Positions 1 through 61,112 of a stretch of DNA of 64,000 nt are shown piece by piece. Under the pieces are notes generated by a model. That model was not told the origin of the DNA. It worked only from the letters and a program-made list of their open reading frames with translations, and did no database searches. Position 1 is the stretch's first letter, and the number at the start of each line of letters is the position of its first letter. Both the position numbers and the translations under genes were made by a program. Where the stretch lies: positions 512,001 to 576,000 of the forward strand of contig CBDDTI010000746.1 of NCBI GenBank assembly GCA_965233585.1, written 5' to 3'. This DNA is from a bacterium. GTDB lineage: Bacteria; SAR324; NAC60-12.

Positions 1-1496
1 GTCAATTTGTCCACAAAATGCTTGTGTAAATCATTGACTTTTTGCCCTGTTGCTTGTTCCAGTTCTTCAATAGAGCCAAAGCAAATGTAGTCCCCTTCTT
101 CAGAAGTCCAAATCGGCAAAGGCGTCCCCCAAAAGCGGTTGCGACTGATTGCCCAGTCTCTGGCATTTTCTAGCCATTTGCCAAAACGTCCTGTCTTGAT
201 ACGTTCAGGTTGCCAGTTGATGGTCTGATTGTTTTGAATCAATTTTTCTTTGAGTGTTTCCACATTGACAAACCACGTGTCAATCGCCTTATACATCAAG
301 GGAGTGTCGGTTCTCCAACAAAACGGGTAGCTATGATGCAAGGATTGATGAACAAAAACATTCCCTTGTGTTTTGAGTGTTTTGATGATGAGAGAGTCTG
401 CCTCTTTAAAATGCTTGCCTGCAAAGTCTCCTGCCACTTTTAAAAAATAACCTTCTGAATTGATGGGGTCAAAAATCTTGATTCCTGCTTGCTGACAAAT
501 CCGCAAGTCGTCTTCACCAAAGGCGGGGGCTTGATGCACAATTCCAGAGCCACTTTCATCGCTGACGTAGTCATCGCTTAAAAGACTCCATGCGTTGTCT
601 CCACAATCAGCACCTGCAAAATCAAACAAACGCCGATAACGTTTTCCAACCAACTCTGACCCCTGATGAGTGCTGAGAATTTCAAAGGTGTCAGGTTGAA
701 AATAGTCTGCAATACGGTTTTTGCTTAAATAATAAGTCGCTCCATCTTTGAGGCTTTTGACTTTGGCATATTGTAAACTTGCCCCCACACAAAGAGCCAA
801 ATTAGAAGGCAGCGTCCAAGGGGTCGTTGTCCATGCAAGGAAAAAAGTGTCAGGTTCTCCATCAACTGCAAATCTGACAGTGAGTGAATGGTCTTGAGTG
901 TCTTTGTAGTTCAGATTTGCCTCAAAGTTAGAAAGAGGACTTGAAAGCCTTGCAGAAAACGGCACAACCTTCAAACCTTTGTAGATTAAGCCTTGATTCC
1001 AAAGTTGTGCAAAAACCCACCAGACAGATTCCATGAAGGAAAGGTCTATCGTCTTGTAATCGTTGTCAAAATCCACCCAACGACCAATCCTTTCAATCGT
1101 TTCACGCCATTGAGAAGTATAACGAAGCACGATTTTTCGGCATTCTTCATTAAATTTTTCAATACCAAATGCCTCAATGTCTGGTCTGCCATTGAGCTTG
1201 AGCATTTTTTCAATTTCAGCTTCCACAGGCAAACCGTGACAATCCCAGCCAAAGCGTCTTTCAACACGTTTGCCTTGCATGGTTTGGTAACGTGGAATGG
1301 CATCTTTGATGATACTTGCCAGCAAATGCCCATAGTGAGGCAAACCTGTCGCAAATGGAGGTCCGTCATAAAAAACAAAGGCATTGGATTGGGGCTTTTG
1401 CTCAATGGATTTTTCAAAGATTTGTCGGTCTTTCCAAAACTTCAAAACATTGAGTTCTTGTTCAGACAAAGACAGTTTGTTAGAGATTTTTTTCAT
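1..1496 (-). CDS. ileS: Isoleucine--tRNA ligase, type 2 (N-terminal part; runs off window)
   Basis: Not in the ORF track. My translation from ATG 1496 gives FYDGPPFATGLPHYGH, RRFGWDCHGLPVE, AWTTTPWTLPSN and GKWLENARDWAISRNRFWGTP. Confidence 0.96.
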   Translation of the reverse strand, partial: MKKISNKLSLSEQELNVLKFWKDRQIFEKSIEQKPQSNAFVFYDGPPFATGLPHYGHLLASIIKDAIPRYQTMQGKRVERRFGWDCHGLPVEAEIEKMLKLNGRPDIEAFGIEKFNEECRKIVLRYTSQWRETIERIGRWVDFDNDYKTIDLSFMESVWWVFAQLWNQGLIYKGLKVVPFSARLSSPLSNFEANLNYKDTQDHSLTVRFAVDGEPDTFFLAWTTTPWTLPSNLALCVGASLQYAKVKSLKDGATYYLSKNRIADYFQPDTFEILSTHQGSELVGKRYRRLFDFAGADCGDNAWSLLSDDYVSDESGSGIVHQAPAFGEDDLRICQQAGIKIFDPINSEGYFLKVAGDFAGKHFKEADSLIIKTLKTQGNVFVHQSLHHSYPFCWRTDTPLMYKAIDTWFVNVETLKEKLIQNNQTINWQPERIKTGRFGKWLENARDWAISRNRFWGTPLPIWTSEEGDYICFGSIEELEQATGQKVNDLHKHFVDKL

Positions 1497-41917: not shown

Positions 41918-41958
41918 TTTTTTAAGTTTGCCAAAAGGTCTGAATGTTAGGAAGGAAA

Positions 41959-41973
41959 GCAAGCGTTATGCCA
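41959..41973 (-). promoter_or_regulatory. sigma54 (-24/-12) promoter of flgFGAH
   Basis: Minus strand TGGCATAACGCTTGC, i.e. GG-N10-GC, about 40 bp upstream of the flgF ATG. Confidence 0.75.
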
Positions 41974-57576: not shown

Positions 57577-57619
57577 AATTTGACTGAAATGATGTCAAGA
57601 AAAGGAGGGAAAAAAGGAA

Positions 57620-57641
57620 GGGGCTGTCAGAAAACAACCCC
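57620..57641 (-). terminator. Intrinsic terminator after the small acidic gene
   Basis: Minus strand GGGGTTGT-TTTCTG-ACAGCCCC followed by TTCCTTTTTT. Confidence 0.55.
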
Positions 57642-57666
57642 TAAGAAAGAGAAAAGATGATGAAAG

Positions 57667-57864
57667 CTAGAAACTTCCAAGAGTGCCGTAATTAGAAATG
57701 CAATCTTGGATGTCGCTGAGATCATTGTTTGATTGCTCATCAAGATCAAAGAGATTATCGCACACGGTCGCATTGCTTGGGTCAAGTTTTTCCACTTTAC
57801 CCCCACCTGCTAGGAAATTTTGAACAGCCTCGTCCAAACTCTCTTTTGTTAATTCTACTGACAT
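57667..57864 (-). CDS. Small acidic protein with a SutA-like RNA-polymerase-binding motif
   Basis: GGAGG RBS before ATG 57864; LDEAVQNFLAGGGKVEKLDP resembles the Pseudomonas SutA core (recalled as LAKAMEEFLSRGGKVQEIEP). Confidence 0.65.
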   Translation of the reverse strand: MSVELTKESLDEAVQNFLAGGGKVEKLDPSNATVCDNLFDLDEQSNNDLSDIQDCISNYGTLGSF

Positions 57865-57920
57865 AAGAACCTCCATTTTGTAAAAAAAATTAAATAATAA
57901 GTAAAATTAAAATATCTTTT

Positions 57921-57935
57921 GCGATAACCGTGCCA
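57921..57935 (-). promoter_or_regulatory. sigma54 (-24/-12) promoter
   Basis: Minus strand TGGCACGGTTATCGC, i.e. GG-N10-GC. Confidence 0.75.
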
Positions 57936-58012
57936 TACTTTTGATTTATATACAAGCCGTTGTTTTTTATGAATAAAACATCTTTTATCAAATCAACTCA
58001 ATCAACAACCAA

Positions 58013-58047
58013 ATACATTTTATGTATGTTGCATGACATTTTATGTA
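58013..58047. promoter_or_regulatory. Tandem palindromic candidate enhancer sites
   Basis: ACATTTTATGT at 58015-58025 and 58036-58046 (21 bp period); the first extends to perfect ATACAT-TTT-ATGTAT. Confidence 0.65.
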
Positions 58048-58078
58048 CATAAATCTTTATTTTTGTAAAAAATTGTAA

Positions 58079-59566
58079 ATGAATGAATTAGAAATAAGTT
58101 TTTTGGAAACTGTCAGGAATATCGTAATTATGAACCCTTTCAGTGATCAATATTGCCTTGTTGCCAAAAAGATTGCCAAAATTCCTGACCAAGCCAGTGC
58201 TTCTGAAGTTTTGGGTTGTGTTGCAAAAACTGCCCAGGATTGGATTGCACAAATTGAATCTAAGTACCAGTACACCCTGACGCTTTCCACTTTTGAAGAC
58301 GAAAAAAACGAGCTTTTGCATTCTCTTTTTTTGTTAGAAGGCTATGGACGATACACCAAAGGCTTTGTTAAATTGATTCAGAAACAGCTTCAAAATAACG
58401 GACAATCACAAGAAGTCAAATTTGGCAAAGAAGCCATTGCCTATTTAGAAAGTCGTGGATTTTCTTACAAAGAAGCATTGTCAAGGTTTGCTCTTTTTTA
58501 TCAGATTCACCGCGCACATTATTTCATCGGAGATTCGTTGCGTGGATGTTCCCAATCTATGCGTGAGCTTCGTTATAAGCTGTGGAGTAACATTTTTACA
58601 AATAGCATTGTCTGGTATGAAAAATACCTTTTTGGAAAGATGGAGGGGTTTTCTACCTTGTTTCTTGGCGAAACTGGCACGGGTAAAGGAGCAGCAGCAG
58701 CAGCACTGGGACAGTCTGGATACATTCCATACGACCATAAAAAACACTGCTTCTCAGAAAGTTTTACAAAAACCTTTCTTGCGACCAATCTTTCTCAATA
58801 TTCCGAACAACTCATTGAATCAGAGCTTTTTGGACACAAAAAAGGAGCATTTACTGGTGCAGTAGAGTCTTATGATGGCTTACTCGGGCAATGTAGCCCA
58901 AACGGTTCAATTTTTCTTGATGAACTGGGAGAAGTCAATATGTCTATCCAAATCAAGTTGCTTCAGGTTTTACAAGAAAGAACCTATACACCTGTGGGAA
59001 GCCACGAACACAAACGTTTTTCAGGACGCATCATTGCAGCAACTAATAAATCCCTAGCAGATTTAAGACAACAGGGAGCAATCCGAGATGATTTTTTTTA
59101 CAGGCTTTGTTCTGATGTCATCACTGTCCCACCATTACGCATGAGAATCCAAGAATCACCCCAAGAAATGGACTTGTTGATTCATATCACTTTGCAAAGA
59201 TTAACAGGTGAAGAACACCCTGAACTTTTTGGGATTGTCAAACGCGCTTTGTCTCATAACTTGCCCAAAGAATACCATTGGCCCGGTAATGTCAGGGAAC
59301 TTGAGCAGGCGGTGAGGCGTGTCTTGCTGACCAAAGAATACCTTGGGGACAGAAAATATGTTGCGGCAGATTTAAGAACAAGACTGCTCAATGATTTTGT
59401 GGAGGGCAATTTGCCTGCTAGCGAAGTGCTTGGTGCTTATTGTGCATTACTTTACGCACGTTATTCTACTTACGAAGAAGTCGCACGCCGTACAATGCTT
59501 GACCGCCGCACAGTGAAAAAATACATTGACTACTGGAAAAAACAAGTTAACACTGATACCATTTAA
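58079..59566 (+). CDS. sigma54-dependent enhancer-binding protein with unrecognised N-terminal domain
   Basis: GETGTGK, ESELFGHKKGAFTGA, FLDELGE, RDDFFYRL, WPGNVREL; C-terminal HTH YEEVARRTMLDRRTVKKY. Confidence 0.93.
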   Translation: MNELEISFLETVRNIVIMNPFSDQYCLVAKKIAKIPDQASASEVLGCVAKTAQDWIAQIESKYQYTLTLSTFEDEKNELLHSLFLLEGYGRYTKGFVKLIQKQLQNNGQSQEVKFGKEAIAYLESRGFSYKEALSRFALFYQIHRAHYFIGDSLRGCSQSMRELRYKLWSNIFTNSIVWYEKYLFGKMEGFSTLFLGETGTGKGAAAAALGQSGYIPYDHKKHCFSESFTKTFLATNLSQYSEQLIESELFGHKKGAFTGAVESYDGLLGQCSPNGSIFLDELGEVNMSIQIKLLQVLQERTYTPVGSHEHKRFSGRIIAATNKSLADLRQQGAIRDDFFYRLCSDVITVPPLRMRIQESPQEMDLLIHITLQRLTGEEHPELFGIVKRALSHNLPKEYHWPGNVRELEQAVRRVLLTKEYLGDRKYVAADLRTRLLNDFVEGNLPASEVLGAYCALLYARYSTYEEVARRTMLDRRTVKKYIDYWKKQVNTDTI

Positions 59567-59618: not shown

Positions 59619-61112
59619 ATGGGATCCATTGATCTTCAAATAAGCTGGCAAGCAGTTGTCATCACATTTTTAATCGGAACGTTAGGAAGCATTCTAGTCT
59701 GTCTGCCTTCTCTTGTCCGAATTTCCAAATTAAGCCCTGCACAGCTGTTCCGTTCTGGCTCTCCTGAAGCCCACCAAAAATATTGGAAGCTGTCCCTTAT
59801 TGCCTGTCTGCCTGTCATTGTCTTTTATGCCTTGCTTGCTTTTTGGCAAGTCAGGTCATGGCTGGTTGGGGGAATCTTTTTGGTGAGTTTCACCGTGGTT
59901 CTTACGATCTTAGGTTCTACTGCATCGCTTGGGTTGTTTTTATTACAAAAAATTCAAATTGAATCCTACCCCAGATTGAGGCTGGCTTTACGAAGTTTGA
60001 CAAGGCATAAAATTGGGTCAACGCTCTGTTTTGTCGCCATTGGGTCAGGAGCTTTTCTTGCCAGTGTTCCTGAGCAAGTTCGCTCCATCGTTTTTGATGA
60101 ACTCTACCAAAAAGACCCAGACCTCCCAACTCCTAGTTTGTTTTTGTTTGATATTCAACCCAATCAAGTTGAGCCTTTAAAGCAGTTTTTAATTGAAAAA
60201 AATACCAAGCTAGAAGACCTTTCCCCAATGGTGCGTGGACGCATGACTCATATCAACGGCGAATTGATAGAAAAAGACAATGAAGACTTTCAAAGACGCA
60301 GTGTCAATTTGTCTTATCGTGAAAAACTGTCTGTCACAGAACGAATCACTGATGGTGAGGTCATTGACCAGCCTTATGATGAATCAAGTGGAGAACTCCC
60401 CAAAGTTTCTCTAGTCTGGGATTTTGCTGAAGAAAGAGGCATCAGCATCGGGGATACAATTACGTTTGATGTGCAAGGAATCGCAGTTGAAGGGAAAATT
60501 GTCAATTTCAGAGAAGTGTTGTGGACAAGTTTCAGACCTAATTTCTTCATTATGTTTCAAAGTGGAGTGCTAGAAGAAGCTCCCCAAACTTATGTCGGGG
60601 TCATCACATCTGTCCCCCAAGATGAACGTCCAGCGTTACAACATGCTCTCTCTGAACGATTCACCAATATTGCCGCATTAGACGTCTCTAAAAGCATTGA
60701 TGCCATCTCAAAACGTATTGAGCAGATTGTGTGGGCATTGCGTGTAGTGGCATCTGCTACCTTAGTTGTTGGCTTAGTTGTGTTATTTGCGATTGCACAG
60801 TCAGAAACCAAATCGCGTGACTGGGAAGTGGGATTGCTCAAATCACTAGGGGCATCTTTGAACAATGTACGTGTGGTGGTCTATGCTGAGTTTGGCATTT
60901 TATGCCTCGCATCTACTATCGTTGCAATGTTGATGAGTCTTTCCATCTCTCAAACGATTTCATGGCTTATCTTTGGAAGAGTCGGAAGCATTGCATGGAC
61001 TGCCTTCATTGTTGACATAGTGTCTATTCTCTCTTTCAGTTTTTTGATTGCAATCCTTGCTGTTTCACACAGTCTCAAACAAACGCCTCTCAAACTTTTA
61101 CGTTCTGTTTGA
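59619..61112 (+). pseudogene. FtsX-like (YbbP-type) ABC permease, apparently C-terminal part only
   Basis: PSLFLFDIQP.Q, PMVRGR, R.V.W.SFRPNFF, LKSLGAS. Starts at the end of the first FtsX domain; in-frame TAA at 59613; no ATPase adjacent. Confidence 0.6.

Follow-up and report, generated by a model that had tools for sequence, protein, structure and literature searches.

What is the output of a sigma-54 activator whose gene stands divergent from a gene for an acidic protein of just 65 amino acids, and what could such a protein do to RNA polymerase? The question is raised by positions 57,620 to 59,566 of a stretch of 64,000 nucleotides (hereafter the window), which corresponds to positions 512,001 to 576,000 of contig CBDDTI010000746.1 in GenBank assembly GCA_965233585.1, from a bacterium of the SAR324 lineage (NAC60-12 in GTDB). 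A first-pass annotation had described this locus as a self-contained sigma-54 module driving a microprotein similar to SutA, a protein of Pseudomonas that binds RNA polymerase. On balance, we favour the view that the locus is a two-gene sigma-54 regulatory unit making a polymerase binder of the SutA type that is reduced to the RNA polymerase-binding domain (RBD). The gene, the motifs, the conservation of the motifs and the homology rest on sequence and on comparison between genomes, and the mode of the small protein is likely one of binding like SutA and acting differently.

In the mechanism that we propose, the 495-aa activator would bind the two palindromes ACATTTTATGT in the common spacer through its C-terminal helix-turn-helix, and a signal, probably a metabolite as judged from the genes found beside relatives of the activator, would act on its all-helical N-terminal domain. 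Spending ATP, the activator would open the complex of the sigma-54 holoenzyme at a putative TGGCAC-N5-TCGCA promoter, and the sole product would be a transcript of about 270 nt encoding the 65-aa protein. This protein would most likely dock on the beta protrusion of RNA polymerase like the binding domain of SutA, and it would be unable to force the beta lobe open in the manner of SutA because an N-terminal acidic domain and a wedge loop are absent. Polymerase would be modulated in another way, by occupancy of the site or by action through the C-terminal tail, and the effect of the small protein on polymerase may be negative or sigma-selective.

The small protein and the binding domain of SutA

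The acidic gene with its ribosome-binding site (RBS) and its terminator was found as the first-pass annotation had described it (Table 1). The longest open reading frame (ORF) covers positions 57667-57876 and would encode 69 aa; the second ATG, at 57864, is preferred because GGAGG falls within the first codons of the 69-aa version, and the two closest orthologues, P0002 and P0003, are likewise 65 aa long. Automatic gene callers may choose the 69-aa form, which starts at an in-frame ATG 12 nt further upstream (extension 57865-57876). The protein has an isoelectric point of 4.05, with 13 acidic (D/E) and 3 basic (K/R) residues; the part from residue 29 to the end contains 7 D/E and lacks basic residues. 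Only a single copy of the family is present in the window genome. A structural model of the protein contains one helix (residues 7-19), the rest being disordered (pLDDT 60.9), which agrees with SutA, likewise reported as mostly disordered, and fits a protein that folds upon its partner.

The likeness to SutA that the first-pass annotation had put forward was borne out by profile searches. SutA-RBD (PF20661) was the only Pfam family matched by the small protein (E 2.8e-5), and a precomputed annotation based on version.3 of the PF20661 model lists the same domain. The orthologue P0002, which is 77% identical, scored 30.8 bits and thereby exceeded the cut-off of 29.3, and each of the 12 family members tested had SutA-RBD as its best Pfam family, three of them, P0002 included, lying over the gathering score. 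When a profile of the three orthologues was compared with proteins of solved structure, the SutA chain 7f0r_G was the best solved chain (E 0.047), and with a 15-member family profile the same chain was again best at an E of 1e-4, the next chain following at 0.056.

According to the available text of He et al. (PMC9300723), binding of SutA to the beta protrusion is impaired by alanine at L67, M71, F74, L75, V81, I84, K60 or R64 as well as by bulky changes at G78 and G79. Our alignment places residues 7-30 of the small protein opposite residues 68-91 of 7f0r_G, a chain whose numbering runs four ahead of that paper's, and on checking, the nine aligned residues named in the paper fell on the right letters. 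Residues K7, L10, V14, F17, L18, G21, G22, V24 and L27 thus stand opposite SutA R64, L67, M71, F74, L75, G78, G79, V81 and I84, respectively, and for the ten contacts of SutA with the beta protrusion this amounts to six identical positions (L10, F17, L18, G21, G22, V24) and three conservative ones (K7, V14, L27). With SutA (PDB 7XL3, 7XL4 and 7F0R) the small protein therefore has in common a helix followed by a short strand and the pattern L..V/M..FL..GG.V..L/I, the element that in SutA grips the beta protrusion; both proteins are small, acidic and largely disordered.

Several features of the protein weigh against a SutA-type assignment. The homologous stretch comprises just about 25 residues, SutA K60 has no counterpart (the small protein has V3, outside the aligned stretch), and the HMM search that the first-pass annotation had proposed as a check gave PF20661 as the best and only Pfam match with 23.8 bits, under the cut-off of 29.3. 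Also, the C-terminal tail is 77-100% conserved across the three close orthologues, which exceeds what a simple acidic spacer would require, and this tail may have a partner of its own. Finally, the parts needed for activation by SutA are absent. One could imagine that nothing more than a short motif is shared and that the gene encodes an acidic, disordered protein that serves another purpose, be it mimicry of DNA, a chaperone-like activity or partnership with another protein. The shortness of the alignment and the sub-threshold Pfam score are compatible with this, as are the reversed architecture with respect to SutA and the best NCBIfam match, which was the uncharacterised family PFL_1563 (NF058628; E 6.1e-5 and 22.6 bits, far below the cut-off of 60, residues 9-31). 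The full-length NCBIfam model of SutA (NF041490) gave 15.6 bits against a cut-off of 145 (E 0.021, residues 10-34 only). The PFL_1563 family consists of short proteins that share the FL..GG motif with the small protein, and a search for its name gave no paper in the literature collection used. However, nine of the ten functionally tested interface positions of SutA are identical or conservatively replaced, the GG pair included, among solved structures SutA ranks first and well ahead of the next chain, and for 38 of the 54 members of the family the SutA-RBD domain of Pfam has been precomputed. We therefore regard a shared motif without a shared function as unlikely and retain the view that the protein would bind polymerase in the manner of SutA.

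Binding like SutA need not mean acting like SutA. In the available text on SutA, the binding domain is given as residues 57-90 and is preceded by a 55-residue D/E-rich domain, the wedge loop (residues 54-57) enters the gap between protrusion and lobe, and at its C-terminal end the binding domain extends in the direction of sigma region 3.1 (PMC9300723). The same text and a preprint, as far as available, state that the N-terminal domain and the wedge loop are needed for activation and that a SutA mutant without the N-terminal tail inhibited transcription (PMC9300723; bioRxiv 10.1101/423384). As the small protein begins at about SutA residue 58, with an extension of at most 1-2 residues before the binding helix (from about residue 3), it has neither the N-terminal acidic domain nor the wedge loop. 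The first-pass annotation had noted that the acidic tract is C-terminal here and N-terminal in SutA, and this holds: a 36-residue acidic C-terminal tail is found where SutA has a short C-tail. The SutA-like function in supporting transcription that had been attached to the protein does not follow, since SutA's activation parts are missing. By its sequence, the small protein is an RBD-only relative of SutA, and as SutA proper it fails on two defining features. A co-fold of the small protein with beta residues 1-540 from the same genome, run without controls, gave 0.22 against a mark of 0.32 and counts neither way.

The regulatory spacer in the window and in a second genus

The promoter and the two palindromes 21 bp apart that had been reported for the spacer are present as described, the tandem palindromes being situated upstream of the -24 element by about 80-110 bp, and the predicted transcript start would be near 57909. 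An integration host factor (IHF) site had been called near-consensus; the sequence ATACAAGCCGTTG is indeed there, but with 7 of the 9 specified positions of WATCAANNNNTTR, which we take to be the IHF consensus, that description was generous. Three HU/IHF-family genes were found in the window genome, none of them over the IHF-alpha cut-off.

In order to judge these motifs, their frequencies were compared with chance expectation. The pattern TGGCAYN5TYGCW occurs twice in the window where 0.52 occurrences would be expected, and 13 of 100 shuffled sequences reach two. In the 12-Mb genome, TGGCA[CT]N5T[CT]GC[AT] is found 42 times, against about 31 estimated from base frequencies, and the 11-mer of the palindrome 18 times, against an estimate of about 19. 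Each motif alone is therefore near chance. However, this locus is the sole place in the 12-Mb genome where a sigma-54-like promoter has the palindrome (with up to one mismatch) 40-300 bp upstream, and also the sole place with a tandem palindrome pair at 21-nt spacing. By this in silico measure, the module probably has one target only in the genome. The combination of motifs exceeds chance, and the case for it rests on comparison between lineages.

Such a comparison was possible with G008, a genome from a different genus, which encodes an orthologous activator (43% identity in the N-domain). Its gene is divergent from a 74-aa gene whose product, MTKDKFNPISITRDDINAAMEQFFAKGGKINRIE..., contains AAMEQFFAKGGKINRIE and has an acidic tail at its end. 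The spacer of G008 can otherwise hardly be aligned with that of the window, and because of this poor alignability promoter and palindrome stand out: a sigma-54-type promoter TGGCATGCTAATCGCA, a palindrome TGTACATAAAATGT, a further copy of it at a distance of 22 nt, overlapping the start codon of the activator, and, between palindrome and promoter, a perfect match AATCAACCCATTG to the IHF consensus. The claim of a sigma-54 module as a unit is thus sustained insofar as promoter, palindromes and divergent activator are kept in a second genus and an rpoN gene is present in the window genome. Among 18 SutA-like small genes checked, such a promoter was located within 300 nt upstream in two, namely in the window and in G008. 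Furthermore, the closest orthologues of the small protein (P0002 and P0003) and of the activator (P0009 and P0010) come from source contigs of equal size, P0002 and P0009 each from a contig of 36686 nt, P0003 and P0010 each from a contig of 17086 nt, and therefore P0002/P0009 and P0003/P0010 are probably located on common contigs.

These data also bear on whether the match to a sigma-54 promoter is fortuitous, the small gene being transcribed by another holoenzyme and the activator controlling something else. Two observations speak against a sigma-54 promoter at this place, the -12 element, which is TCGC and not TTGC, and the genome-wide frequency of the pattern close to chance. Against a fortuitous match stand the occurrence of TGGCAY-N5-TCGCA before the G008 orthologue as well, in a spacer that has otherwise diverged, the correct orientation and distance to the gene, the tandem putative activator site at 86-107 bp, and the lack of a second promoter-plus-palindrome pair in the genome. 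In addition, no sigma-70-like promoter was detected on the strand of the small gene within the intergenic region. A fortuitous promoter match is therefore very improbable in our view, and expression of the small gene from a sigma-54 promoter under the divergent activator remains the preferred interpretation.

The second match to the sigma-54-type pattern in the window, TGGCATAACGCTTGCT at 41958-41973 (-), sits 217 nt before an ORF of 198 aa whose start (MSHEYLDLFVGMDKSAV...) looks like that of a flagellar rod protein. It may serve the genome's other sigma-54 activator.

The activator subfamily and the wider small-protein family

The divergent activator had been described as a GAFTGA protein with an unrecognised N-terminus, and both parts of this description were confirmed. 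The match to Sigma54_activat (PF00158) is strong (138.5 bits against a cut-off of 20.2, E 2.2e-40), and an AAA lid is also present. For the C-terminal helix-turn-helix, HTH_23 was matched below its cut-off (E 0.0039, 17.4 bits against 24.6); the segment is almost invariant among orthologues. Residues 1-190 did not match any Pfam or NCBIfam family, the sensor domains known from such activators (receiver, GAF, PAS, V4R and CARF) included. A model of this N-domain consists of nine helices (pLDDT 86.4, pTM 0.80); with this model Foldseek found nothing in the PDB at E <= 0.001, the highest Z among 48,161 chains compared by VIA-align was 4.9 (none >= 5), and the ESM Atlas returned just an unnamed cluster with a score of 0.94, negatives that do not establish a new fold or exclude a relative among known sensors. 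The best NCBIfam match of the activator was RtcR (E 1.7e-48, residues 193-416), with which it has in common the AAA+ core with GAFTGA; its 165.8 bits, where 650 would be required, show that it is no RtcR equivalog. The window genome has one rpoN (Sigma54_DBD, 201.9 bits) and five matches to PF00158, two of which are clear sigma-54 activators, the other three scoring 22-29 bits on frames of 764-830 residues.

Among 61 related genomes, 4 encode the N-domain, and a wider survey of the phylum gave 9 genomes with it out of 88. More distant activators at 29-38% identity were examined at 14 metagenome loci, and 8 of these have the palindrome no more than 50 nt ahead of the matched N-domain, without mismatch at 4 loci, with one mismatch at 3 and with two at 1. 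Given near-duplicates among the loci, this corresponds to about 5 independent cases. At several metagenome loci the palindrome overlaps the start codon of the activator; in L037, L038, L041-L044 and L047 it reads TACATTTTATGTATG and lies over the activator's own ATG, about 45-48 nt before the matched N-domain. Such a position suggests autoregulation across phyla. The helix-turn-helix (YEEVAR..DRRTVKK) is conserved throughout the metagenome loci, and the relation between recognition helix and operator type across orthologues is suggestive, not clean. We infer that the palindrome is the cognate operator of the activators and that, on this comparative evidence, they form an undescribed subfamily of sigma-54 activators that is marked by an N-domain kept across phyla and by a conserved operator.

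The survey of genes divergent from homologous activators, which the first-pass annotation had suggested, gave a divided result: a SutA-like gene accompanies the activator in G008, and none does so in G009 or at any of the 14 metagenome loci. The latter outcome tells against a general link between activator and small protein, as do the arrangement in G009, where the activator lies behind a PTPS-family gene with no adjacent small gene, palindrome or promoter match, and that in genus g42, where a carboxyltransferase gene (PF01039) is the divergent neighbour of the activator in 4 of 5 genomes. In g42 (L075-L078), a conserved GGCAY-N5-TTGTAAT, with GT instead of GC at -12, and repeats of the form GTATA...TATGCA...TGTATAT were noted, which may be a variant promoter and operator. 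Further neighbours of related activators were genes for a BcrAD/BadFG CoA-enzyme activase, a B12/radical-SAM protein, an ABC transporter pair and a second activator. From these neighbourhoods, the pairing of activator and SutA-like gene appears lineage-specific, the subfamily being mostly located beside metabolic genes, and for this reason a metabolite is suspected as the signal. In view of the carboxyltransferase, CoA-enzyme activase and radical-SAM genes, acyl-CoA esters and organic acids would be candidates.

Downstream of the activator in the window, a gene for a 497-aa FtsX-family permease (59619-61112, +) starts 53 nt past the activator stop, and in L039, L042 and L043 the activator follows genes of the same strand for an ABC ATPase and a UPF0014 permease. 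The window and these three loci have transporters of different families, and the transporter link is absent in G008 and G009.

In the Psp system, PspA, the product of the target gene, binds and controls the activator PspF. The 65-aa protein might similarly be a feedback partner that binds the activator and tunes or silences it, its likeness to SutA being secondary. Small gene and activator are indeed tightly paired in two genera and probably on two more contigs, feedback is frequent in single-target modules, close orthologues show strong conservation of the tail, and in many lineages the palindromes overlap or abut the activator start, which suggests autoregulation. However, small proteins with the N-terminal motif are encoded in 28 of 61 related genomes and the activator in 4 of these 61, with none next door at the loci inspected, the conserved residues are those by which SutA holds the beta protrusion, and orthologous activators elsewhere manage without such a partner. 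A feedback partner is hence quite improbable, and we prefer RNA polymerase as the target of the small protein.

The distribution of the small proteins points to a family that extends well beyond the activator. In the 28 related genomes with the N-terminal motif, it was often found in several small ORFs per genome, whose products have 47-86 aa, a short extension at the N-terminus and, in most cases, an acidic tail. A family profile collected 54 proteins of 43-127 aa, all of them labelled as 'hypothetical protein' or with a bare gene-call string; one member carries the source label 'Deltaproteobacteria bacterium'. With the three-orthologue profile, a library-wide search yielded, besides P0002, four long proteins only (P0004-P0007, 723-1272 aa), in each of which profile residues 10-47 were matched in 4-9 separate stretches, probably owing to repeats or to composition. 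A scan of metagenome contigs for the small protein gave no match, and the sole match on a genome contig, L007 (labelled as a metagenome-assembled genome of Silvanigrellaceae), was rejected as spurious, since it is a 531-aa periplasmic binding protein that happens to contain NVCDNLFD. As to genome sizes, the window genome assembly amounts to 12.0 Mb in 747 contigs with about 40% G+C throughout, most related genomes have 2-5 Mb, and G008 and G009, which encode close activator orthologues, have 9.7 and 5.3 Mb.

Upstream of three SutA-like paralogues, in L011 (1390-1602, -), L025 (690-899, +) and L012 (1501-1710, +), there is a TTGACA-type promoter together with an inverted repeat, TTAGCACTC-N9-GAGTGCTAA, which in L025 and L012 is slightly degenerate. 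The repeat presumably corresponds to the CIRCE operator of the heat-shock repressor HrcA and suggests heat-shock control of the small-protein family. A broader reading, which we offer tentatively and hold with less confidence than the two-gene unit itself, would be that a small non-proteobacterial phylum possesses a stress-inducible family of RBD-only SutA proteins, whose sole member in the window genome has been captured by a dedicated sigma-54 switch with an undescribed all-helical sensor. The microprotein, made on a perhaps metabolic signal, would then occupy the SutA site and, as it lacks the wedge, act with opposite sign or on a different target from SutA; for instance, sigma-70 transcription may be damped or the competition among sigma factors shifted. 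If true, this would be an alternative-sigma circuit with a polymerase modifier as its only output.

Table 1. Coordinates of the features at the locus (positions in the window, or residues of the small protein).
Feature	Position	Strand	Description and basis
Small protein gene, 65 aa, acidic	57667..57864	-	translation, Pfam, alignment, orthologues
RBS GGAGG of the small gene	57870..57874	-	5 nt before ATG 57864; read from sequence
SutA-RBD-like part of the small protein (helix + short strand)	residues ~3-30	-	Pfam, alignment
Acidic C-terminal tail of the small protein	residues 29-65	-	composition
Intrinsic terminator of the small gene	57642..57619	-	10-bp stem then TCCTTTTTTC (T-run); 25 nt past stop codon
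Sigma-54-type promoter TGGCACGGTTATCGCA (TGGCAC-GGTTA-TCGCA)	57935..57920	-	55 nt before ATG; GG at -24, GC at -12, canonical spacing
Weak IHF-like site	57950..57962	+	7 of 9 specified consensus positions
Palindrome ACATTTTATGT, putative activator site 1	58015..58025	+	sequence; motif kept beside orthologous activators
Palindrome ACATTTTATGT, putative activator site 2	58036..58046	+	sequence; 21 nt start to start from site 1
Divergent activator, 495 aa	58079..59566	+	translation, Pfam
Activator residues 1-190, all-helical, presumed sensor domain	58079..58648	+	model; no named family
Activator AAA+ sigma-54 interaction domain, residues 191-344	58649..59110	+	PF00158; GETGTGKG, GAFTGA, FLDELGE
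Activator C-terminal helix-turn-helix, residues ~455-487, YEEVARRTMLDRRTVKKYI	59441..59539	+	weak HTH_23 match

Comparison with SutA and with pspF-pspA

SutA itself has been reported only from a few gammaproteobacterial orders, Pseudomonadales, Alteromonadales and Oceanospirillales, in the available parts of two sources (PMC9300723; bioRxiv 10.1101/423384). The window comes from a small phylum, for which a search for up to 300 species genomes gave 88, and which is therefore not the very large phylum of Pseudomonas. In Pseudomonas aeruginosa, according to the available sections of a recent preprint, transcription of sutA depends on RpoD and on FliA and/or RpoS, and its putative RpoN sites are described there as unsupported and not conserved (preprint 10.64898/2026.06.26.734693). 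In contrast, the small gene of the window appears to have a dedicated sigma-54 activator, and this presumed control is a difference from P. aeruginosa sutA, not a common trait. A literature search joining SutA with sigma-54 returned only an unrelated paper, and one for SutA homologues and Bdellovibrio nothing relevant. Relatives of the small protein appear to be stress-regulated, and so is SutA.

Apart from SutA, to our knowledge, no protein has been studied that makes use of the beta protrusion in such a way. The occurrence of 54 small proteins in a distant phylum, with the acidic tail on the other end, suggests that the binding element is a portable module that has been joined to different effector tails. 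With one activator, one promoter and one 65-aa product, the locus offers a simple test system for the effect of an RBD-only protein on RNA polymerase, and it points as well to an activator subfamily with a conserved operator and an undescribed sensor domain, present in several phyla beside metabolic genes.

The layout of the locus resembles that of pspF-pspA, where the activator gene is divergent from a single sigma-54 target, with tandem sites in the common spacer and a bend site before the promoter. In common with it, the window has the divergent layout, tandem sites near the activator start and a putative bend site between these sites and the promoter. PspF, which lacks a sensor domain, is under the control of its target's product, whereas the window activator has an N-domain of 190 residues and its target encodes a protein of RNA-polymerase-binding type.

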